From: Aerosakkonema sp. BLCC-F183
GTDB taxonomy: Bacteria; Cyanobacteriota; Cyanobacteriia; Cyanobacteriales; Aerosakkonemataceae
DNA length: 20,867 bases
Direction: 5' to 3'
Assembly (NCBI RefSeq): GCF_041929145.1
Contig: NZ_JBHFNU010000005.1
Coordinates: forward strand, 1 to 20,867
Part shown: in pieces, positions 387 to 16,563 of the stretch
Layout of the letters: every line of letters starts with the position of its first letter
Numbering within the stretch: position 1 is the stretch's first letter
Program-made: the position numbers and the translations under genes
The notes under the pieces: generated by a model
The model's input: only the letters and a program-made list of their open reading frames with translations
Databases searched by the model: none
What the model was told of the DNA's origin: nothing

Positions 387-1133
387 TCAACTAGAAATTG
401 TGCCATCCGGCATAATAGTTTTCTGGAAGATAGCGTCTTTGAGATTAGCTTTATTGAGGTTAGCACCTCTGAGATTCGCATAACTGAGATTAGCACCTGC
501 GAGATTAACTTTGCTGAGGTTAGTCCATCTCAGATCCGCTCCTTCCAAGTCAGCTTCGCTCAGGTTAGCCTTAAACAGGTAGACTCCATTGAGATGAGCT
601 TCTCTGAGACTAGCTTTAAAAAGGTCAGCTTTGTAAAGGTAAGCTCCAATTAGGTAAGCTTGGTGCAACTTAGCATTGCTGAGTTTAGCATTACTGAGGT
701 TAGCACCTCTGAGGTTAGCTGCGGCGAGGTTAGTTCCCACCAAGTTAGCATCACCCAGATCGGCTCTTTCCAGGTTAGCTTCTCCCAGGTCAGCACCGAT
801 CAAGTTAGCATAAGCGAAATCTGCTTCCGTCAGGTCAGCTTTCCATAAATTAGTGCCGGTCAAGTTCGCTGCGGTCAGGTTAGCTTCGTTGAGGAGTGCT
901 TCCTGAAGGTTGGCAAGACTGATGTTAGCATTGCTGAGGTTGGCGGTAATCAGTAAAGCTTGGCCGAGATCTGCTTTTCTCAGGTTTACTTTTTCCAAGT
1001 TCGCGCCTCTGAGATTAGCGCCTTGAAGGTTTGCTTCGCTGAGGTCTGGTTCTGTATCCTGATTGGAAGTTCTCCACTTAAGCCATTTCACCGCTCCTTC
1101 TTTAAGTAGGGTAAGATGCTCTATATTTGCCAT
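387..1133 (-). CDS. Pentapeptide-repeat protein
   Basis: The 248-aa ORF is dominated by tandem A(N/D)LxxA(N/D)Lxx pentapeptides (ANLQGANLRGANLEKVNLRKADL...). This family is extremely abundant in cyanobacteria. Confidence 0.9.
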   Translation of the reverse strand: MANIEHLTLLKEGAVKWLKWRTSNQDTEPDLSEANLQGANLRGANLEKVNLRKADLGQALLITANLSNANISLANLQEALLNEANLTAANLTGTNLWKADLTEADFAYANLIGADLGEANLERADLGDANLVGTNLAAANLRGANLSNAKLSNAKLHQAYLIGAYLYKADLFKASLREAHLNGVYLFKANLSEADLEGADLRWTNLSKVNLAGANLSYANLRGANLNKANLKDAIFQKTIMPDGTISS

Positions 1134-1997: not shown

Positions 1998-2035
1998 GCA
2001 CAGTCGTCCCAGCTGAACAAGAATAGATTGGCAGA

Positions 2036-2175
2036 GTGGGGGAGCGGGAGAGCGGGGGAGTGGGGGAGCGGAAGAATTAATATTTTCCCTTTTCCCTCTT
2101 CCTTTTCCCTCTCCCTAACCCCTCTTCCCTAACCCCTCTTCCCTAACCCCTCTTCCCTAACCCCTAACCCCTAAC
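2036..2175. repeat. G-run block followed by a C-run heptamer tandem array, (CCCTAAC/CCCTCTT)n ending in (CCCCTAA)3, between convergent genes
   Basis: gggggagcgggagagcgggggagtgggggagcgg lies at about 2037-2064. It is followed by ttttccctcttccttttccctctccc, then three copies of the 14-mer CCCTAACCCCTCTT, then (CCCCTAA)x3 up to 2172. The two halves are partly complementary. This is STRR-like heptamer periodicity. Confidence 0.8.
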
Positions 2176-2177
2176 CC

Positions 2178-3668
2178 CTATTTCAAAACCCAATTCACGA
2201 GAGTGCGAACACCGTAACCGGTAGCACCAACGTTGTTGTAGCCGTTTTCCTTGTCTGTCCAAACTGGGCCGGCAATGTCCAAGTGTACCCAAGGGGTTTC
2301 TTTGACAAATTGCTTGAGGAACAAGGCAGCGGTGATGGAACCGCCGGGACGGGGGCCGGTATTTTTCATATCGGCAATTTGGGATTTTAAACCATCAAAG
2401 TATTTCTCTTCCAGAGGCATCCGCCATAGCTTTTCGCCAGCAAGTTCGGCAGATTCAATAATCTCGTTGGCGACGGTATCGTTCGGACTCCACAAACCGG
2501 CAATATCATCGCCTAAAGCGATGACGCACGCACCGGTGAGTGTGGCTAAGTCGATCATGGCATCAACGCCGAGTTTTTCGGCAAACACCAAAGCATCTGC
2601 CAGAGTCAGGCGTCCTTCCGCATCGGTGTTGTTGACTTCGATCGTCTTGCCGTTAGAAGCTTTCAGAACATCGCCTGGGTGCATGGCGCGACCGCCGATC
2701 ATATTCTCGGTAGCTGCGGTGATAAAATGAACTTCCACATCGGGTTTGAGTTGGGCGATCGCTTTTGCCGCACCCAAAGTTGCAGCTGCACCACCCATGT
2801 CTATTTTCATCATCTCGATACCGCTACCGGCAACTTTGATATTCAAACCGCCAGAGTCGAAGGTCAAACCTTTACCGATAATTGCCAATTTGCGGCGCGG
2901 TGTTCCCTCCGGTTTGTAAGTTAAGTGAATAAACTTAGGCGGTAAGTCGGAAGCTTTGGCAACACCCAAAAACGCACCCATCCCCAGCTTTTCGCAATCT
3001 TCTTGTTCCAAGATTTCTGCCGCCAAGCCGAATTCTTGTGCTAGCGCTTCCGCTGTTTGGGCCATTGTCACTGGAGTTACCTCGTTGGCTGGTGCGGCCA
3101 CCAGTTCCCGCGCTAGGATAACACCGGCGCAGATTTGCTTGGCGCGGTTAATTGCGTCTTCTTGACCCTCGAAACCGAGTAAATCGATTTGTTCGAGTTG
3201 CGGCCCTTTGTCTTCCGATTCTGACTTAAAGCGGTTATCTTGGTGCAGGGCCAGTTCTATACCTTCAACGATCGCCCCAGTTGTAGTTGGGGCATCATTA
3301 TTCCACACTGGTAAGCTCAGGCCCAAGGTTTTGCATTTTTCCTTTTTAGCTAACCGAGCTGCTGCTGCTGCCGATCGGCGCAAAGAATTTAACTTCTGCG
3401 TTTCGGCCTTGCCCAGTCCCACCAGTATAATTTTACGGACTGGACTGCCGCTACCGCCAACGCGAGTCGAAGCGCTGCTGCCTTCTTTGCCCTTAAATTC
3501 GGTTTCTGCAATCAAATCTTGCAAAGTACCGCCGAACTTCTCGTTTAACTGCGCTAAATCGCCAGTTAACTCGACGGCATCTTCAAAAAAGCCAATTGCC
3601 AATCCATCCCCCGACCAATCTAAGCGCGGGGTATTTATTGCGCGAAATTCCATTCCCCGTTTCACCAA
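2178..3668 (-). CDS. pepA: Leucyl aminopeptidase (M17 family, cytosol aminopeptidase)
   Basis: The 496-aa product carries the M17 signature [14 protein letters not shown] and the DMGGAAA and KGLTFDSGG motifs. The true start may be the internal Met of MEFRAIN. Confidence 0.9.
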
Positions 3669-6320: not shown

Positions 6321-6355
6321 AGTCAAAAGTCAAAAGTCAAAAGTCAAAAGTCAAA
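6321..6355. repeat. (AGTCAAA)5 perfect heptamer tandem repeat, STRR-like
   Basis: agtcaaa repeats five times with no mismatch, directly downstream of the slt stop. Confidence 0.9.
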
Positions 6356-6390: not shown

Positions 6391-6428
6391 CCGGACGCCC
6401 GACGCCCGACGCCCGACGCCCGACGCCC
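6391..6428. repeat. (CCCGACG)5 heptamer tandem repeat preceded by a CT-rich cctctccctcttcccttttccc tract
   Basis: ccggacg is followed by four copies of cccgacg and then ccc. The CT-rich tract at 6366-6392 shares the TCCCTCTCCC motif with the repeat block at 2077-2110. Confidence 0.9.
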
Positions 6429-7356: not shown

Positions 7357-7566
7357 ATGACATCACAACCATTAGAGTTAGAGGGAACCTGGGAAGAAAT
7401 TGTTGCCCAATCAGAAAAACTGACCGGACGTCGCGTTCGCGTTATTGTTCTTGCTGAAGAAGAGTTGAAGTCCGCAGAAGAAAGTTTTCGGCAGGGATGG
7501 TATGAAGCCATGACAGGGCAAACAATACCTCTTTCGGAATTATGGGAAGGGATTGATGCCGAATAA
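7357..7566 (+). CDS. Small protein, putative antitoxin partner of the downstream RelE/ParE-like toxin
   Basis: The 69-aa acidic product overlaps the toxin gene start by 14 nt. I recognise no family signature, so the assignment rests on context only. Confidence 0.4.
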   Translation: MTSQPLELEGTWEEIVAQSEKLTGRRVRVIVLAEEELKSAEESFRQGWYEAMTGQTIPLSELWEGIDAE

Positions 7567-7981
7567 TCTTCCTTCAATAGAAGTTAAACCAACGCTTGAG
7601 TTTAAGAGTGACTTACGCGCCCTATCCAAAAAGTACCGCCATATTAAATCTGATATTCAGCCAGTTATTGAACGACTACAAACTGGGGAATTACTTGGGG
7701 ATCGGATACCTGGGATAGGTTATGAGGTATTTAAGGCGCGAGTCAGAAACAGCGATATCAAAAAGGGTAAAAGCGGTGGCTATAGACTGATATACTATAT
7801 TCAAAACCGCACAAGCATCATTTTGATCAGTATTTATTCAAAATCTGAGCAATCCGATATTGCCGCAGAGAAAATTCGACGGATCGTGACTGAGTTTAAT
7901 GAGCTTAGTCTCGGCGGAGACTTCAGTCAAGATCGAGAAGAAATGCAAGATGAGAATAATGGCGATCGTCCCAGCGATTAA
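7553..7981 (+). CDS. RelE/ParE-family type II toxin (addiction-module killer-like)
   Basis: The 142-aa product ...IEVKPTLEFKSDLRALSKKYRHIKSDIQPVIERLQTGELLGDRIPGIGYEVFKARVRNSDIKKGKSGGYRLIYYIQNRTSIILISIYSKSEQSDI follows the RelE/ParE layout of a helical N-terminus, then G-YRLIY, then a beta-strand ending in Y-K-S/E. It overlaps the upstream small ORF. Confidence 0.65.
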   Translation: MMPNNLPSIEVKPTLEFKSDLRALSKKYRHIKSDIQPVIERLQTGELLGDRIPGIGYEVFKARVRNSDIKKGKSGGYRLIYYIQNRTSIILISIYSKSEQSDIAAEKIRRIVTEFNELSLGGDFSQDREEMQDENNGDRPSD

Positions 7982-8046: not shown

Positions 8047-9819
8047 TCACAAGATATCCTCTGCAAACTTTCCGAGATTTTCCTGTCTCCACTTAGCATC
8101 TGCCTTCCGATTTGTTCTCAATTCTAATACCCGAATTCCTTGTTCTGGCAGAGGATTCAATCTTTGTTTCAGTTGCTGCCAAGAAGCGATCGCTTCATAT
8201 TCGACATTGTAGGTAGCACAAAGCTGAGCGAAATCTATATCCTGGGGTGTGGCAAAAAATTCTTCAAATGGCGGCTCAAATTTGGCAATTGGCAACATTT
8301 CAAATATACCACCACCATTGTTATTAATCAAGATAATAGTGAGATGTCCGAGAAATTTATTTCTCAATAAAAAGCCGTTGGTATCGTGCAACAAAGCTAA
8401 ATCTCCAGTCAGCATGACGCTGCTTTGATGGCGATGGGCAATGCCTAAAGCGGTGGATAAAGTGCCGTCGATGCCATTAGCGCCCCGGTTGAAAAAGGGT
8501 TGAATTCCAGAATTGTTCGGTGTCCAGAAAAATTCCACATCTCGCACGGGCATACTGTTGGCAATAAATATAGGCGTTGCTGGTGGTAAAGACTGGGAAA
8601 GTAACCAAGCAACTTTACATTCAAATAAGGTTTCTGTTGTTGCCATTGTGCGGTCAATGCGTTGCCTGACAGTGGCTTCGGCATCGCACCAAATTTGCAG
8701 ATATTTACTGAGATTATTTGGTTCGATCGCACATATTTGCGCTAGCTGTTCTACGGATAATCGCAGATGAGTTGTGTTGCCGTGTAGCGGATCTAAATTG
8801 TGATGGCTGGTGTCAATTACCCATGTGAGCGGTTGGGTTGATTCTAACCAAGTTCGCAGTTCTTTACTGGTGGGTAAGTCTCCTATCTGGATGGCGATTT
8901 CCGGTTTAAGTTGTTGTGCTATTTGTTGGTTTCTTAATATCGAATCGTAGGTGGAAATTAAGTAAGGATTTAGTTCGGCATAATTTCGCAATGGCGATAA
9001 TCCCTCTGCTAATACAGGCCATTTTAAGGTTTGGGAAAGTTGGGCAATTGCCTGACAATATTGTTTGGGAAAGTGAGGTTGTGACGTGCCGGCGATGATG
9101 ATTCCATGCTCGCATTGCGACCAGTTTTGTAACGTATTGAGTAAAGAATTATTGTTGGCTATTGACAACTGACAACTGACAACTGACGACTGACAACTAG
9201 CAAAGAAATGTTCTGGCTGAAATTGCGATCGCAACTCCTCGGTAGCCGCTTGGGGTATGGGGGCGAGAGGGTCGCGAAAGGGGATGTTAAGATGGATTGG
9301 GCCGGGAACGGGAAAGAGCGATCGCTCCCACCCATGAATAATTGTTTGCCGCAGATAATTCAGCATTCCTATTTCTAATGATGGCACTGCTAACTCGGCT
9401 TGCCAGTTCGGATAAGTGCCATATAATTTGATTTGGTCGATAGTTTGTCCGGAATGACAATCTCGCAATTCTGGGGGGCGATCGGCTGTGAAAACTAACA
9501 GCGGTACGCGACTTTCTCTGGCTTCAATAATAGCAGGATAAAAGTTTGCGCCCGCAGTTCCGGAAGTGCAAACTAATGCTACTGGCAAACCTGATTTTTT
9601 GGCAATTCCCAAAGCAAAAAAAGCAGCCGATCGCTCGTCCAAAACGGGAATTGCTTCTATTTTATCTTGTTGGGCAAAAGCAACTGCCAAAGCAGTAGAA
9701 CGCGACCCCGGACAGATAACTGCTGTAGTTAGTCCGAGTCGTTTTAAGGTTTCCGTAAGTATGGAAGCCCAGACAGAATTAGTGTTGCGAAAATCTATGG
9801 GCATTGGGGATTGGGTCAT
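8047..9819 (-). CDS. menD: 2-succinyl-5-enolpyruvyl-6-hydroxy-3-cyclohexene-1-carboxylate (SEPHCHC) synthase, MenD, ThDP-dependent
   Basis: The 590-aa product has the N-terminus ...SVWASILTETLKRLGLTTAVICPGSRSTALAVAFA typical of MenD. ThDP-fold motifs GDLALLHD and NNNGGGIF are present. It abuts menF with start and stop adjacent at 9819/9820. Confidence 0.9.
   Translation of the reverse strand: MTQSPMPIDFRNTNSVWASILTETLKRLGLTTAVICPGSRSTALAVAFAQQDKIEAIPVLDERSAAFFALGIAKKSGLPVALVCTSGTAGANFYPAIIEARESRVPLLVFTADRPPELRDCHSGQTIDQIKLYGTYPNWQAELAVPSLEIGMLNYLRQTIIHGWERSLFPVPGPIHLNIPFRDPLAPIPQAATEELRSQFQPEHFFASCQSSVVSCQLSIANNNSLLNTLQNWSQCEHGIIIAGTSQPHFPKQYCQAIAQLSQTLKWPVLAEGLSPLRNYAELNPYLISTYDSILRNQQIAQQLKPEIAIQIGDLPTSKELRTWLESTQPLTWVIDTSHHNLDPLHGNTTHLRLSVEQLAQICAIEPNNLSKYLQIWCDAEATVRQRIDRTMATTETLFECKVAWLLSQSLPPATPIFIANSMPVRDVEFFWTPNNSGIQPFFNRGANGIDGTLSTALGIAHRHQSSVMLTGDLALLHDTNGFLLRNKFLGHLTIILINNNGGGIFEMLPIAKFEPPFEEFFATPQDIDFAQLCATYNVEYEAIASWQQLKQRLNPLPEQGIRVLELRTNRKADAKWRQENLGKFAEDIL
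9163..9197. repeat. (TGACAAC)5 heptamer tandem repeat lying inside the menD coding sequence
   Basis: tgacaac tgacaac tgacaac tgacgac tgacaac is read on the minus strand as the low-complexity peptide ASCQSSVVSCQLS within MenD. Confidence 0.85.
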
Positions 9820-11247
9820 TCACACTAAAGCTTTGAGAAGTGCTTGAAGTTTCAGTTGAATTTCTGCAAGTTCTTTGTCTGGATCTGAGCCAGCAACGAT
9901 ACCGGCACCTGCGTACAGTCTAGCGCGATCGCTATCTATCAGTGCTGAACGAATGCCTACGACAAACTCGCTGTTACCGCGATGATCTATCCAACCTAAT
10001 GGTGCCGCATAAACAGAGCGATCGAATGCTTCATAGCGGCGAATTTGGCTCAGCGCGATATCTCTAGGATCGCCTGCAACAGCAGGGGTGGGATGGAGTT
10101 CTGCCAAAATTTGTAATGGCTGCACACCGCCAGCGATTTTACCTCGAATTGGTGTCCATAAATGTTGTATATTTGATAGCTGTAAAAGACCGGGAATAGG
10201 AAGTCGCTGGTGTGACAAACCGAGGTTGGATAAGCGCTCGACAATGAAATCAATTACAACTCGATGTTCCCGCCTTTCCTTTTCGCTCCTGAGCAAACGT
10301 TCAGCAAAATAGGCATCTTCGGCTGCTGTTTTGCCTCGCGGTGCTGACCCCGCCAAAGCATCGGTTTCTAATTCTCGCTCTTGTATCCTAATTAAGCGCT
10401 CTGGACTGGCACCGATAAAATCTTTACCTTTGCCGTTACTGGTAGAAAAAACATAGCAATCGGGATACATTCTTCGCAAATTATTTAAGGAATCAACCCG
10501 ACGAAAAGGGCGCGGCGAATTAACCTCAATTGCGTGAGCTAAGACAATTTTGCTAAAATGTTTAGACCGAATCGATTGCAATGCCGATACGACTGAGGCT
10601 TGAAAATTTCTGCGATCGGTTACATCTTGCGGTTGAAATTTCTGTTTATAATCGCTCAAATGAAAATTTCTGTAGTTCGCGAATCTAATTTGGTGGAGTT
10701 TCTGCCATATATTCTCTGCTATAACTTCGATGTTTGCATTGCTGTCGATTACAGTATTAGCCACTATAACACAGTAATCTTTTTGACAGGAAACCTGCCA
10801 GCGAGGTAAAAAAACTGTGGCGGCGGGGAAAGGAGAATCACCATTGATATTCTCATCAAAAAATGTGAAAGTACAGAAAAAGTGAGGCCCAGAAAAAGGC
10901 AGGTCTAACGCGCCTGTGGCAATTGTGTTAGCAAGGCATGAATCGATAAATTTTTGTGCTTGCGAAAAGCGATCGACTCCTTCTAACTTAAATTTAGCGG
11001 CTGTATCGATCGCCGCGATCGCTTCCCCTTGATTGGCTTTTTCCCAATAAAAATGCAGTTTTTCCGGCTCGGCAATGCGATCGAGTACAGCTAGCGGATC
11101 GAGCGGTTTACTTGGCAGGGAAATACTGACAACTTTTTGCAGCCCTTTTTCAATTAACGTTTGTTTGCAAGCTAAAAGAAACTGATGCAGTTCCTTGCGA
11201 TCTTCAAACAGATTAGGATGATGTGTCACTGGCACGGAAGCGAACAT
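9820..11247 (-). CDS. menF: Isochorismate synthase MenF (chorismate-binding enzyme family)
   Basis: The 475-aa product has a chorismate-utilising C-terminus with PTPAVAG and YAGAGIVAGSDPDKELAEI motifs. It lies immediately upstream of and co-oriented with menD. Confidence 0.85.
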   Translation of the reverse strand: MFASVPVTHHPNLFEDRKELHQFLLACKQTLIEKGLQKVVSISLPSKPLDPLAVLDRIAEPEKLHFYWEKANQGEAIAAIDTAAKFKLEGVDRFSQAQKFIDSCLANTIATGALDLPFSGPHFFCTFTFFDENINGDSPFPAATVFLPRWQVSCQKDYCVIVANTVIDSNANIEVIAENIWQKLHQIRFANYRNFHLSDYKQKFQPQDVTDRRNFQASVVSALQSIRSKHFSKIVLAHAIEVNSPRPFRRVDSLNNLRRMYPDCYVFSTSNGKGKDFIGASPERLIRIQERELETDALAGSAPRGKTAAEDAYFAERLLRSEKERREHRVVIDFIVERLSNLGLSHQRLPIPGLLQLSNIQHLWTPIRGKIAGGVQPLQILAELHPTPAVAGDPRDIALSQIRRYEAFDRSVYAAPLGWIDHRGNSEFVVGIRSALIDSDRARLYAGAGIVAGSDPDKELAEIQLKLQALLKALV

Positions 11248-11506: not shown

Positions 11507-11655
11507 TCAAAAGGTTTGAAATCCCTGCTTGGTGGTAGCGACACTGGCAACGTCCCCAGCAAAGATTGTGGCCTGCGTTATCCAGATTGAGTTTACCATT
11601 GCGACCTCAGCATCATAAAATTATGAGATTCGGAAAATTCAATCGATACCGTCCG

Positions 11656-12561
11656 ATGACTACACAATCTATTGCTCATTCAAACAGTAAGTTGTGGTTG
11701 GCAGCACTTAAACCACCGATGTACAGCGTTGCCGTGATTCCAATTTGGGTGGGAACTGCTGTTGCTTGCGCGGAAAATAACACTTTTAATGGCGCAATCT
11801 TTTCGACATTTTTAATTTCAGCGATTTTGATTGTTGCGTGGCTGAATCTCAGCAACGATGTGTTCGATTCGGAAACTGGAATTGATAAAAACAAAGCGCA
11901 TTCGCTCGTTAATTTAACAGGAAATAAACCCTTAATTTTCTGGTTGGCGAATTTGTTTTTAGCTGTGGGTATTCTGGGAGTAGTGGCGATCGCATGGTGG
12001 CAACAAGACCTCACTGTAATCGGTCTGATACTGCTCTGCTGTGCTATGGGCTACACTTACCAAGGGCCGCCCTTTCGGTTGGGATATCAGGGTTTGGGGG
12101 AAATTATTTGCTTTTTTACCTTTGGGCCATTGGGCGGATCGGCGGCGTACTACAGCCAAACCCAAAGCTGGTCGATCGCCAATATAGCAGCTTCTGCGAT
12201 CGTCGGCATCGTCACCAGCTTGATTTTGTTTTGCTCCCATTTTCATCAACTTGAAGACGACCTAGCGGCAGGGAAGAAATCGCCCATTGTCCGACTCGGC
12301 ACTGCCAAAGCATCCCAGCTATTACCTTGGTTTGGCGGCAGCATTTACCCTTTGACTGTGCTGTTCGTCGCATTGCACATTTTTCCAGTTTGGACATTGC
12401 TAATCTTTGTCAGTTTACCCCTCGCCCTCAAGTTATTCCGACACGTTGGCGAAAATCACGATCGACCGGAAAAAGTCAGCAATTGTAAATTTATCGCCGT
12501 AGCCCTGCATTTTTGGAGTGGCTTACTGTTAGGATTGGGATTCGTACTTGCCAACATTTGA
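11656..12561 (+). CDS. menA: 1,4-dihydroxy-2-naphthoate phytyltransferase MenA (UbiA prenyltransferase family)
   Basis: The product is a polytopic membrane protein with the MenA-type first motif NDVFDSETGID (NDxxDxxxGxD) and a second Asp-rich motif near EDDLAAGKKS. It is followed by menC and menE. The ORF is open from 11566 and ATG 11623 is also possible. ATG 11656 (MTTQS...) gives a length typical of MenA. The stop TGA at 12559-12561 overlaps the menC ATG. Confidence 0.8.
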   Translation: MTTQSIAHSNSKLWLAALKPPMYSVAVIPIWVGTAVACAENNTFNGAIFSTFLISAILIVAWLNLSNDVFDSETGIDKNKAHSLVNLTGNKPLIFWLANLFLAVGILGVVAIAWWQQDLTVIGLILLCCAMGYTYQGPPFRLGYQGLGEIICFFTFGPLGGSAAYYSQTQSWSIANIAASAIVGIVTSLILFCSHFHQLEDDLAAGKKSPIVRLGTAKASQLLPWFGGSIYPLTVLFVALHIFPVWTLLIFVSLPLALKLFRHVGENHDRPEKVSNCKFIAVALHFWSGLLLGLGFVLANI

Positions 12562-13553
12562 TGTTTTATCAGTTTGAATTTCGTCCTTATCAGCGACAGT
12601 TTAAACGCGCCCTCTCCACCAGTCACGGCAACTGGGATATTCGAGAGGGCATTATCCTGCGCCTCACCGACGATAAAGGTGTAATTGCTTGGGGAGAAAT
12701 TGCCCCTATTCCCTGGTTTGGTTCCGAAACATTGCCATCAGCTATAAATTTTTGTAGTCAATTGGGAGATGAAATAACAACAGAAACAATTTTCTCTATT
12801 CCATCTGAATTACCATCATGTCAATTTGGTTTTGAATCTGCTTGGGAAACATCTCTTGTGAGGCAGGCATCGACGCTGCCACTAAGACCGGACAGGCAAG
12901 ATGCCTATCCCACAAGAAAGTATTCTTACAGTTGCTTATTACCAGCAGGCGAAGCCGCTTTACATCAATGGCAAACACTTTGGCAGCAAGGATATCGTAC
13001 TTTCAAATGGAAAATTAATGTTACTCCCATTGAAGATGAAATCAAAATTTTTGCCAAGCTAATTCAGGCACTACCGAGGTCGGCAAAACTGCGATTAGAT
13101 GCTAATGCTGGACTGAATTGGTCAGAAGCAAATGAATGGCTGAAAATGTGCGAGAATTACTCTGCGATCGAATTCCTCGAACAACCCCTACCCGTCGAGC
13201 AATTTCATGCCATGCTAGATTTAGCTAACCGCTATTCTACCCCAATAGCATTAGATGAATCCGTTGCCACCCTTAACCAACTGCAAACCTGTTACGAAGA
13301 AGGTTGGCGAAGTATTTTTGTCATCAAACCCGGCATCGTTGGTTCCCCCAGACTTCTGCGTCAATTTTGTCAGCAACATGACATCGATGTCGTCTTTTCA
13401 TCGGTTTTTGAAACAGCCATTGGCAGACAAGCTGCACTTAACCTCGCAGCTGAACTTTCTCATCATAATCGAGCAGTTGGTTTTGGCGTCAATCACTGGT
13501 TTAATGAAGATGAGGAAACGTGGCTTGAAAATTTATGGAACAACCCCCATTAG
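12561..13553 (+). CDS. menC: o-Succinylbenzoate synthase MenC (enolase superfamily)
   Basis: The product has the KxK motif FKWKI, metal-ligand motifs RLDANAG, EFLEQP and ALDES, and an N-terminus MFYQFEFRPYQRQFKRALSTSHG...GEIAPIPWFGSET typical of cyanobacterial OSBS. The start ATG 12561 overlaps the menA stop as TGATG. Confidence 0.85.
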   Translation: MFYQFEFRPYQRQFKRALSTSHGNWDIREGIILRLTDDKGVIAWGEIAPIPWFGSETLPSAINFCSQLGDEITTETIFSIPSELPSCQFGFESAWETSLVRQASTLPLRPDRQDAYPTRKYSYSCLLPAGEAALHQWQTLWQQGYRTFKWKINVTPIEDEIKIFAKLIQALPRSAKLRLDANAGLNWSEANEWLKMCENYSAIEFLEQPLPVEQFHAMLDLANRYSTPIALDESVATLNQLQTCYEEGWRSIFVIKPGIVGSPRLLRQFCQQHDIDVVFSSVFETAIGRQAALNLAAELSHHNRAVGFGVNHWFNEDEETWLENLWNNPH

Positions 13554-14950
13554 ATCTTGTGGGGCTGGTGTCTCACCTGCCCAATAATTGGTTAATTGGT
13601 TACAACACCCATCAATTTACTCAGCTTGTCGAACAACTATATTTAGAATTAATCCAAATATCCAAACAGCAAAACTCACCAAAAATTATCTTAGCCGAAC
13701 GAAATCCAGTGCGCTTTTTAGCCGGTTTCATCGCTGCAACAGCCGCCGGTTGCCCCGTATTTCTCTGCAATCCCGATTGGGTAAAAGCTGAATGGCAACA
13801 AGTTTTTGAATTAGTTCAACCAGACATAATTTGGGGAAATTTGTCAGTCGTCAGTTGCCAGTTGTTCGCTGCAAAGAAAGAGGAAAAAAAAGCTGATTAC
13901 AGACAGATTATGATTCCCACGGGTGGTTCGTCGGGTGAAATTCGCTTTGCCATCCACACTTGGGAAACATTGACAGCATCGGTGCAAGGTTTTATCGAAT
14001 ATTTCGATATAAAGACAGTCAATTCCTTTTGCGTCTTGCCGCTTTATCATGTCAGCGGTTTGATGCAATTTGTGCGCTCATTCCTCACTGGTGGAAAACT
14101 GGCAATTCTACCTTTTAAAGCACTAGAAGCTGGTGAAAAATGCGAAGTCGAACCAGCAGATTTTTTCATATCTTTAGTGCCAACTCAACTGCAACGTCTG
14201 TTAGATCGTACTCCACAATGGTTGTCTCAGTTTCAAACAATTCTGTTAGGAGGTGCTACAGCTTGGCACGAACTTCTAGAACAAGCGAGACAGCATGAAA
14301 TTCGGTTAGCACTCACTTACGGGATGACAGAAACTGCCTCGCAAATTGTCACCCTCAAACCAGAAGATTTTCTCAAGGGGAATAATAGCTGCGGACAAGT
14401 TTTACCTCATGCAAAGGTAAAAATTTGCAATCCAAATGGGAAGATGTTAGGTGCGAATCAAACGGGAATTATCACCATCAATGCAGATTCATTAGCGCTA
14501 GGTTATTATCCTGATACTTCATTTGTTAGAGAAAAGCAGGTAATTTTACAAGCGGATGATTTGGGATTTTTTGACGAACAAGGTTACTTAAACATTGTCG
14601 GACGTAACAGCAATAAAATCATCACTGGCGGCGAAAATGTTTTTCCATCGGAAGTGGAAGCGGCGATTCGATCGACTAATCTAGTTAGCGATATCTGCGT
14701 CATTGGCATACCCGATTCCCATTGGGGTCAAGCGGTGACGGCTGTGTACGTTCCCAGCCATCCAGAAGTTGACACCGAGACGCTGCAAACCGCACTTTTA
14801 GATAAATTAAGTAACTTCAAGCGCCCCAAATATTGGATACCTGTAGAAAGTTTGCCGCGTAACGCGCAGGGTAAAATTAATCGCGAACAAATACAACAAA
14901 TAGCTATTTCGTGGCATCCAGATCGCTCCAATCTTGCAGCCAGTCAATAA
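13535..14950 (+). CDS. menE: o-Succinylbenzoate-CoA ligase MenE (adenylate-forming enzyme)
   Basis: The 471-aa product has AMP-binding motifs [15 protein letters not shown] and [11 protein letters not shown] and a conserved Lys near the C-terminus. It overlaps the menC 3' end by 19 nt. Confidence 0.85.
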
Positions 14951-16079: not shown

Positions 16080-16297
16080 AGAAAATTATTTGCGGGTTTG
16101 TGTGGTTTCTTAGCTTCATGTTTGGATTTTATGAGGCGTCTGTGTTTTTAATAGAGGCCAACACGAACGAAGAATTTTTGAAAGATAACGTAGAAACAGT
16201 TTCTATTTTACTTTGTGCTTCTGCTCTGGGTTCGTCTGTAATAGCTATTGCAGGTACAATGGCGGGAATATTACCAGGTACAAGCTCAAAAAAATAA
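16076..16297 (+). CDS. Small hypothetical membrane protein with two predicted TM helices
   Basis: The 73-aa ORF overlaps the Uma2 stop as ATGA. Two hydrophobic stretches are present, ICGFVWFLSFMFGFY and ILLCASALGSSVIAIAGTMAGIL. No family is recognised. Confidence 0.35.
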   Translation: MKKIICGFVWFLSFMFGFYEASVFLIEANTNEEFLKDNVETVSILLCASALGSSVIAIAGTMAGILPGTSSKK

Positions 16298-16563
16298 GTA
16301 ATGATGATAGCTAACCTAGATAATAAGCATTTTTGAGAGTGGGTTTTTATATCGTGTCCGGTTGCATCGGTAGTATATGAGCGAAGCGAAACGTTCTCTG
16401 TGGGAATTGGGGGTGAAAATTTTACCGCAGATGTAGGCAGATTAACGCAGATAAACGCAGATAAGAACGCTATTTTTTTATGCAACCGATGCTACCAAAC
16501 ATCATATTAGATCCTCGCTGGGTGGGAGCGATCGCAACTCATTTTCATGGCATTAACTCATAA

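Follow-up and report, generated by a model that had tools for sequence, protein, structure and literature searches.

The menD gene and its heptanucleotide array

The DNA analyzed here, referred to as the window, comprises 20,867 nucleotides (nt) from the cyanobacterium Aerosakkonema sp. BLCC-F183 (contig NZ_JBHFNU010000005.1, positions 1–20,867 of the forward strand). The window harbors a men gene cluster that consists of menF (9820–11247, minus strand), menD (8047–9819, minus strand), menA (11566–12561, plus strand), menC (12513–13553, plus strand) and menE (13535–14950, plus strand), and an array of 7-nt repeats is embedded in frame within menD. The menD open reading frame (ORF) of 590 amino acids (aa) specifies 2-succinyl-5-enolpyruvyl-6-hydroxy-3-cyclohexene-1-carboxylate (SEPHCHC) synthase. 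NCBI places the start at M6 (9804), and the product from this annotated start is 585 aa in length vs. 584 aa in the closest relatives. The protein matched TIGR00173 with 497 bits compared to a cut-off of 244 bits, and the Pfam domains TPP_enzyme_N (residues 19–131) and TPP_enzyme_M_2 (residues 229–419) both scored above their cut-offs, whereas the C-terminal TPP_enzyme_C domain scored 19.8 bits which is under its cut-off of 21.9 bits. The thiamine diphosphate (ThDP) motif GDL...NNNGGG is intact (residues 472–504), with G472-D473-L474 and N499-N500-N501 invariant in an alignment of 26 orthologues (alignment A1). Solved MenD structures matched the protein at E = 5e-104, and all 120 homologous proteins listed span at least 96% of the query. 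The match to the equivalog hidden Markov model, the three-domain ThDP architecture and the intact ThDP motif place the protein in the MenD family. A single MULTISPECIES record covers the MenD proteins of BLCC-F183 and of Aerosakkonema funiforme.

On the plus strand, positions 9163–9197 read TGACAAC TGACAAC TGACAAC TGACGAC TGACAAC, with an A-to-G variant at 9188. Tandem Repeats Finder (TRF) delimited the array at 9163–9198 with a period of 7, 5.1 copies, 93% matches and a score of 65. On the coding strand, the core array (9164–9198, minus strand) runs from 9198 down to 9164 as the units AGTTGTC AGTCGTC AGTTGTC AGTTGTC AGTTGTC which are the same (TGACAAC)5 tract in another phase; 34 of the 35 positions fit the repeat perfectly. 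The core specifies residues 208–219 (SCQSSVVSCQLS), with S208 to S219 encoded by AGT TGT CAG TCG TCA GTT GTC AGT TGT CAG TTG TCA. The unit length of 7 is no multiple of 3, so translation passes through every phase of the repeat and yields the pattern S-C-Q-L-S-V-V. A 21-nt probe of three units found six matches in the window with three or fewer mismatches, four overlapping in menD and two in menE, vs. 0.00 expected from 100 dinucleotide-preserving shuffles of the window. Thus, both TRF and the shuffles identify head-to-tail 7-nt tandem copies beyond chance. The original prediction of a (TGACAAC)5 array with one A-to-G variant inside the MenD coding sequence, in frame and translated as a low-complexity Cys/Ser/Gln/Val peptide, is borne out by the sequence, by TRF, by the ORF at 8047–9819 and by the TIGR00173 match. 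The accompanying puzzle, an array of 35 nt that is not a multiple of 3 and yet preserves the frame, dissolves when a degenerate sixth unit, AATAGCC, is included. This unit (9157–9163, minus strand; codons I220 and A221) falls within a three-mismatch probe match at 9157–9177, and extends the footprint of the array to 42 nt or 14 codons, although the boundary of the sixth unit and of this footprint varies with the mismatch threshold.

The array is located 35% into the gene. As read off the sequence, every frame of (TGACAAC)n contains TGA, whereas (AGTTGTC)n has no stop codon in any frame; the array can therefore survive within a gene only in the orientation observed. The structure of the mRNA around the array showed nothing unusual (z = −0.07). 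The array is unchanged in A. funiforme (GCA_041929185.1; locus L001), which is an independent assembly of a sister species, and an assembly artefact is ruled out by this agreement. The menD gene is intact in the BLCC-F183 genome, and a translated microsatellite, rather than an error, accounts for the odd Cys/Ser/Gln/Val peptide.

The array occupies a hypervariable connector between MenD domains

The array segment falls between the Pfam domains TPP_enzyme_N and TPP_enzyme_M_2. A hypervariable connector that links MenD domains I and II (9124–9201, minus strand; residues about 207–232) was delimited using alignment A1, the Pfam limits, the Bacillus subtilis MenD structure 2X7J and an AlphaFold2 (AF2) model. 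Between the invariant F205-F206 pair and the near-invariant W233 there are no conserved columns among the 26 orthologues, and both length and sequence vary freely. The connector was gapped against 2X7J with low posterior probability, and is effectively unalignable with it. The AF2 model was produced from a 26-sequence alignment and used as weak support only: residues 199–222 were modeled as coil with predicted local distance difference test (pLDDT) values <50 in a model that is mediocre overall (mean pLDDT of 63). We read the array segment as the probable connector that joins the PYR (N-terminal ThDP) domain to the middle domain.

The segment from the FF pair to the GIIIAG motif is 40 aa long in the window, 40 aa in the relative represented by a Logan contig (L002), 39 aa in Argonema, 36 aa in Coleofasciculus and 33–56 aa elsewhere. 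As the connector is equally long in the closest orthologues, the menD array represents no net insertion. The suggestion that the array is a tolerated loop insertion therefore stands in part: the Pfam limits, 2X7J and the AF2 model agree on a permissive, non-conserved segment, but the length of the connector is equal in relatives. Similarly, the proposed structural comparison, made here with B. subtilis MenD, shows a segment that is variable and unalignable, without a net insertion. A lineage-specific net insertion is contradicted by the orthologue alignment, both by these lengths and by a degenerate copy of the array that lies in register in L002. The connector outpaces its flanks in sequence change, with flanks up to 99% identical beside linkers that can scarcely be aligned.

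A second hypervariable segment of MenD was noted at columns 419–465 of alignment A1 (window residues about 362–372). It too contains repeats, with heptamers in L049 and L083 (about nt 1044–1059 of the gene slice) and the peptide SNLQF repeated four times in P0074.

Heptamer arrays recur in MenD connectors of cyanobacteria

Eighty species-level menD loci were collected, and 74 loci in which the connector could be anchored (72 of these, together with L002 and the window) were scanned for a period of 7 by autocorrelation in 42-nt segments across the gene. The gene-wide maximum fell inside the connector in 54 of the 74 loci, although the connector accounts for about 8% of the positions scanned. 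Typical values in the connector were 0.6–1.0 vs. a 99th percentile of about 0.4 for the background. At least three perfect tandem heptamers were present in the connector of 20 loci and elsewhere in the coding sequence in one, where they lie in the second hypervariable segment; 30 of the 74 loci possess a connector array when one mismatch per unit is permitted. About a quarter of the loci, including Stigonema, Aliterella, Chlorogloea and the Floridaenema/Phormidium group, gave no period-7 signal.

The connector units fall into about three families that are unrelated in sequence. They include (CCCCATT)5 in Nostoc PCC 9305 and FACHB-892, (CCCCATT)9 in Nostoc CMAA1605, (CCCCAAT)6 in Aliinostoc, (CCCATTG)4 in Aulosira, (TTCATCA)4 in a metagenome-assembled genome of Leptolyngbyaceae, CCCCATG, and AGTTGTC in the window. 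When (CCATTCC)n is read over three frames the product is P-F-P-I-P-H-S, which accounts for the PFPIPHSPFPIP motif in MenD connectors of Nostocales. Seven loci have both a linker array and arrays in the 2-kb flanks: the units are within one mismatch of each other in three of the seven and are unrelated in four. Overall, heptamer arrays recur at the MenD connector in many cyanobacteria, with units that differ by lineage.

Other types of repeat also were evident in connectors. Chlorogloeopsis fritschii PCC 6912 (L071) possesses a 39-nt tandem duplication, and in the Nostoc loci L023, L028, L054, L064 and L073 the heptamer array is broken up by inserts of 24–69 nt (e.g., TSLRDATRSLLLRRSTTALSTSS) which may be small dispersed repeats. 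The menF-menD junction is a further hot spot for heptamers, with 4–13 units located just upstream of menD in other loci (L016, L018, L045, L072, L077 and L082); the upstream array in L072 is (ACAACTG)4 which belongs to the same unit family as that in the window. At the corresponding site in the window, the C-rich heptamer-like units ATGACCC AATCCCC AATGCCC (9798–9820, minus strand) span the menF stop and menD start, across the candidate start codons M1 and M6.

The array in the closest relatives and its constancy of length

The MenD protein of L002 is 81% identical to that of the window, and AATTGTC AGTCGCC AGCAGTC AGTCGTC AGTCGCC AATAGTC is present at exactly the same codons. The start, length and register of the two arrays are equal, both have a C variant in unit 2, and the sixth unit AATAGCC of the window corresponds to AATAGTC in L002. 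The two Cys residues of the window peptide are not both retained. The L002 sequence is a decayed copy of the array found in the window, and the array, or at least its core, is therefore older than the split of the two lineages. The menD array was inherited from an ancestor held in common with the L002 organism, its length remaining constant while point mutations built up. At the 5′ junction, AATTGTCAG of L002 and Coleofasciculus (L008) is held in common with AGTTGTCAG of the window.

In Argonema antarcticum, which is the closest named relative (MenD 83% identical), the connector has no heptamer array and comprises unrelated sequence instead. This sequence includes a perfect palindrome with 12-bp stems, CCCCCTCTCCGC-TG-GCGGAGAGGGGG (L003:3647–3672, equivalent to L004:2661–2682), which is translated in frame as ...PPSPLAERGLGGEV.... 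Thus, the connector accepts small repeats of quite different kinds. The palindrome resembles a small repeat element of the hairpin type.

The window and A. funiforme were compared over 7.7 kb, within which 39 substitutions and a single indel of exactly 7 nt were found. The indel affects an intergenic array, (GACGCCC)5 (6394–6428, plus strand), between the SLT/TPR gene and tatC, which has one unit fewer in A. funiforme. This array is 2.8 kb from the menD array which is identical in the two species, with a single substitution in the whole of menD. A further intergenic array, (AGTCAAA)5 (6321–6355, plus strand), is unchanged between the two Aerosakkonema assemblies. One-unit slippage therefore occurs in this lineage and has been fixed where it is harmless and not in menD. 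Among other cyanobacteria, L062 and L076 are 95% identical in the flanks, with a difference in connector length of exactly 21 nt (three units), which is the frame-preserving step expected under selection. Whole-unit changes in copy number are seen in the neighboring (GACGCCC)n array and in the L062/L076 linker, but not in the menD array of the window, which is identical in the single close relative compared. A single uninterrupted ORF extended across the N- and C-terminal motifs in 79 of the 80 orthologous menD loci, and the remaining locus lacked the search motif. A scan of metagenome contigs anchored on the exact flanks GAACATTTCTTTGCT..AGTTGTC..AATAGCCAACAATAAT recovered no copy-number variants, a result that carries little weight as the organism may be rare.

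A second array in menE and other occurrences of the unit

The MenE protein specified by the window is 100% identical to an Aerosakkonema sp. BLCC-F183 protein and 99% identical to that of A. funiforme. A degenerate array is present in frame in menE (13839–13866, plus strand), where ATTTGTC AGTCGTC AGTTGCC AGTTGTT encodes 10 residues. This array is 4.6 kb from that in menD, and agrees with menD units 1–4 at 25 of 28 positions, inclusive of the AGTCGTC variant as unit 2. The flanks of the two arrays are dissimilar. The menE array is situated in a hypervariable loop between VQPDIIWG and the P-loop (MIPTGGSSG), and leaves the length of the loop unchanged relative to orthologues (alignment A2). The same loop in other cyanobacteria contains heptamer-type peptides, e.g., SPIPNPQSPIP, and in one case a large tandem insert. 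The array in A. funiforme menE differs by one single nucleotide polymorphism that exchanges S for N.

Arrays of (AGTTGTC)n with at least three copies were found in over 120 metagenome contigs, which come from many habitats and have a median G+C content of 0.58, and the unit is therefore not specific to cyanobacteria. Among 88 of these arrays, 28 were in open frames of at least 150 codons vs. 60% for random positions, which fits a distribution that is largely but not wholly non-coding, with the caveat that long open frames are not reliable when contigs are GC-rich.

Other repeats and features of the window

The 20.9-kb window is unusually rich in period-7 arrays, of which TRF identified seven. 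Repeats of other kinds also were observed. A G-rich 8/16-nt array (AGAGCGGG...) is located at 2033–2180 (plus strand) between the ORF at 1635–1997 and a gene for an M17 aminopeptidase (2178–3668, minus strand). Within 10 nt of this array are C-rich 7/14-nt arrays (TTCCCTC, CCCTCTTCCCTAAC and CCCTAAC) that reach the stop codon of the aminopeptidase ORF. The G-rich and C-rich halves look roughly complementary and might pair. The TRF arrays of 15/30 nt at 440–885, within the ORF at 387–1133 (minus strand), are the coding repeats of a pentapeptide-repeat protein (PF00805, 276 bits). A decamer array, (CGCAGATAAA)3.9, at 16426–16464 overlaps the 5′ end of the ORF at 16129–16485 (minus strand). An Rfam scan of the window returned no matches.

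The gap between tatC and menD contains a small toxin-antitoxin-like pair that differs among relatives (window 7357–7981, plus strand; L002:3776–4382; L003:4928–5568). The pair is RelE/ParE-like in the window and in L002, the latter with an additional Adhesin_E-like ORF, and has a PIN domain in Argonema.

Discussion

It is probable that the menD array is a heptamer microsatellite born of slippage and akin to the short tandemly repeated repetitive (STRR) sequences. The spacer-like segment between the domains would tolerate the array, and purifying selection would preserve the reading frame. Replication slippage would both generate and maintain the heptanucleotide array at this unconstrained site, which joins the PYR domain to the middle domain and where the peptide may be a mere spacer for which nearly any sequence is tolerated. 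Purifying selection on MenD would remove length changes that break the frame, with the result that frame-preserving states alone survive. We infer that the array has no regulatory role.

Several observations weigh against this interpretation. Most of the 74 loci scanned are from Nostocales, and the proportion of 54 in 74 therefore overstates the number of independent events. Closely related Nostoc loci differ mostly by 0, 6, 24, 30, 45, or 60 nt and not by multiples of 21 nt, and several of these differences stem from other small insertions within the array; processes besides pure unit slippage also act at these loci. Array footprints in multiples of three units were found in 9 of 20 cases compared to about 7 expected, which is not significant. 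A general rule of three-unit footprints was dropped for this reason and for its dependence on the threshold, and the notion is kept just for the 42-nt footprint in the window. Moreover, the array in Aerosakkonema is near-perfect whereas the orthologous array in L002 is decayed, an asymmetry that requires either recent re-homogenization in one of the lineages or more rapid decay in the second.

Ectopic recombination or gene conversion may instead have copied the array into the linker from another member of its family, which would make it a dispersed element and not a local microsatellite. The menE array with its AGTCGTC unit in the same position, the many metagenome contigs with (AGTTGTC)n, and the three loci in which linker and flanking intergenic units are within one mismatch are in favor of such an event. 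However, the flanks of the menD and menE arrays have no similarity, the linker and flank units are unrelated in the other four loci, the common variant could be coincidence, and the 5′ junction that L002 and Coleofasciculus (AATTGTCAG) have in common with the window (AGTTGTCAG) is compatible with growth from an ancestral proto-repeat. We therefore regard a copied-in origin as unlikely. It concerns the origin of the array only, and is compatible with maintenance by slippage and purifying selection.

Selection for the heptamer periodicity or for the peptide itself is a still weaker prospect. The array might be a site for a nucleic acid-binding protein, a translational pause for co-translational folding or, through its Cys residues, a redox-sensitive linker. 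Arrays with differing units do recur at one domain boundary over several cyanobacterial orders, those within the menD coding sequence are confined to two hypervariable segments and the menE array lies in a comparable loop; according to a cited review, CspB is able to bind heptamer repeats which also counts in favor of this explanation. Nevertheless, purifying selection alone predicts confinement to variable segments. Neither the unit nor the peptide is conserved between lineages, L002 has not kept both Cys residues, the connector in Argonema and about a quarter of the loci lack the periodicity, and no RNA structure was found at the array. A broader version is a long shot: the MenD connector and loops such as that in MenE would be conserved landing pads, where concerted evolution, driven by selection, would preserve heptamer periodicity across orders. 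The periodicity might then signal a co-translational pause or protein binding at the domain boundary, or tune the length of the linker in three-unit (7-residue) steps.

The original prediction also raised a phase-variation-like switch for phylloquinone synthesis. Such a switch would operate by adding or removing one or two units, and would reversibly shut off the pathway in a subpopulation. Mutants of Synechocystis in menD are viable, and an OFF state need not be lethal. The 7-nt unit, in five near-perfect copies within the coding sequence, would shift the frame on a change of one or two units, and one-unit slippage has taken place in a neighboring array of the lineage, but this switch is very improbable: no OFF alleles were found among the species-level loci, of which 79 of 80 are uninterrupted, or among the 120 listed homologues; the two Aerosakkonema species have the same array although they differ in the neighboring one; the L002 array has the same length despite point mutations, as is typical of a tract constrained in length and not of a length-variable one; and the metagenome scan was empty, with little weight as exact flanks were required. 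These negatives apply to assembled sequences, and heteroplasmy at a low level may exist. The array resembles the simple sequence repeat (SSR) contingency loci of host-adapted bacteria in possessing a unit that is not a multiple of 3 within a coding sequence. It differs in that no ON/OFF polymorphism in tract length was found in A. funiforme, in the 80 loci or in the flank-anchored scan, the tract length is conserved between species, the array is positioned mid-gene, and MenD is a housekeeping enzyme of the phylloquinone pathway and not a surface, host-interaction or restriction-modification protein.

The menD array belongs to a known kind of sequence, the heptamer SSR. With STRR sequences and other long heptanucleotide SSRs it has in common the head-to-tail 7-nt units, the many arrays within a 21-kb region, a one-unit polymorphism nearby and a filamentous host. 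In contrast, Aerosakkonema is non-heterocystous, the menD copy is translated, and AGTTGTC/TGACAAC is not among the C-rich units of the Nostocales loci. A single mismatch presumably separates the unit from a variant of the STRR2 unit TT(G/T)GTCA. Heptanucleotide SSRs are strongly over-represented in Nostoc and some other bacteria where they are mostly intergenic (PMC4692102), and long examples have been surveyed (Mrazek et al., 2007, as cited in PMC4679880). One proposal attributes the excess of heptamers to slippage (PMC4679880). The expectation that STRR-like arrays are normally intergenic holds as a tendency, but 32% of the GGGGA(T/C)T arrays in Nostoc PCC 7120 are intragenic (Rehm et al., 2015; PMC4692102). 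The latter repeats are, like the present array, cyanobacterial heptamer SSRs; they are dispersed through their genome with a substantial intragenic minority, and repeats of this kind, read on the C-rich strand (CCCCAAT/CCCCATT type), make up the MenD linker of the Nostocales loci studied. Unlike these repeats, the unit in the window has no G-tracts and hence no G-quadruplex potential.

The TAACTGA repeats of Beggiatoaceae and cyanobacteria (MacGregor, 2015; PMC4679880) provide a further parallel, as a stop codon in one orientation limits their placement; heptamers of this type are restricted in location and are perhaps tolerated between protein modules (PMC4679880). The rotation TGATAAC is one base from TGACAAC. 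However, TAACTGA repeats are mostly just upstream of start codons with a proposed regulatory role, whereas the menD array is mid-gene and translated. The terms "menD" and "succinyl" are absent from the supplements to PMC4692102 and domain linkers are unaddressed in that study, and no literature on heptamer repeats in menD or on the MenD connector was found in the searchable library.

The recurrence of arrays at one MenD site across lineages, together with the menE loop, thus constitutes a modest new observation within a known phenomenon. If the MenD connector and similar loops proved to be selected landing pads, STRR arrays would be more than passive passengers, with a general and unrecognized part in how multidomain enzymes are shaped and regulated. 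In repeat-rich filamentous cyanobacteria, the MenD connector is repeatedly written by heptamer arrays with lineage-specific units, which would explain its much faster evolution compared to its flanks. The connector offers a concrete and easily surveyed case in which 7-nt slippage, read in three frames, may generate linker sequence in conserved enzymes.

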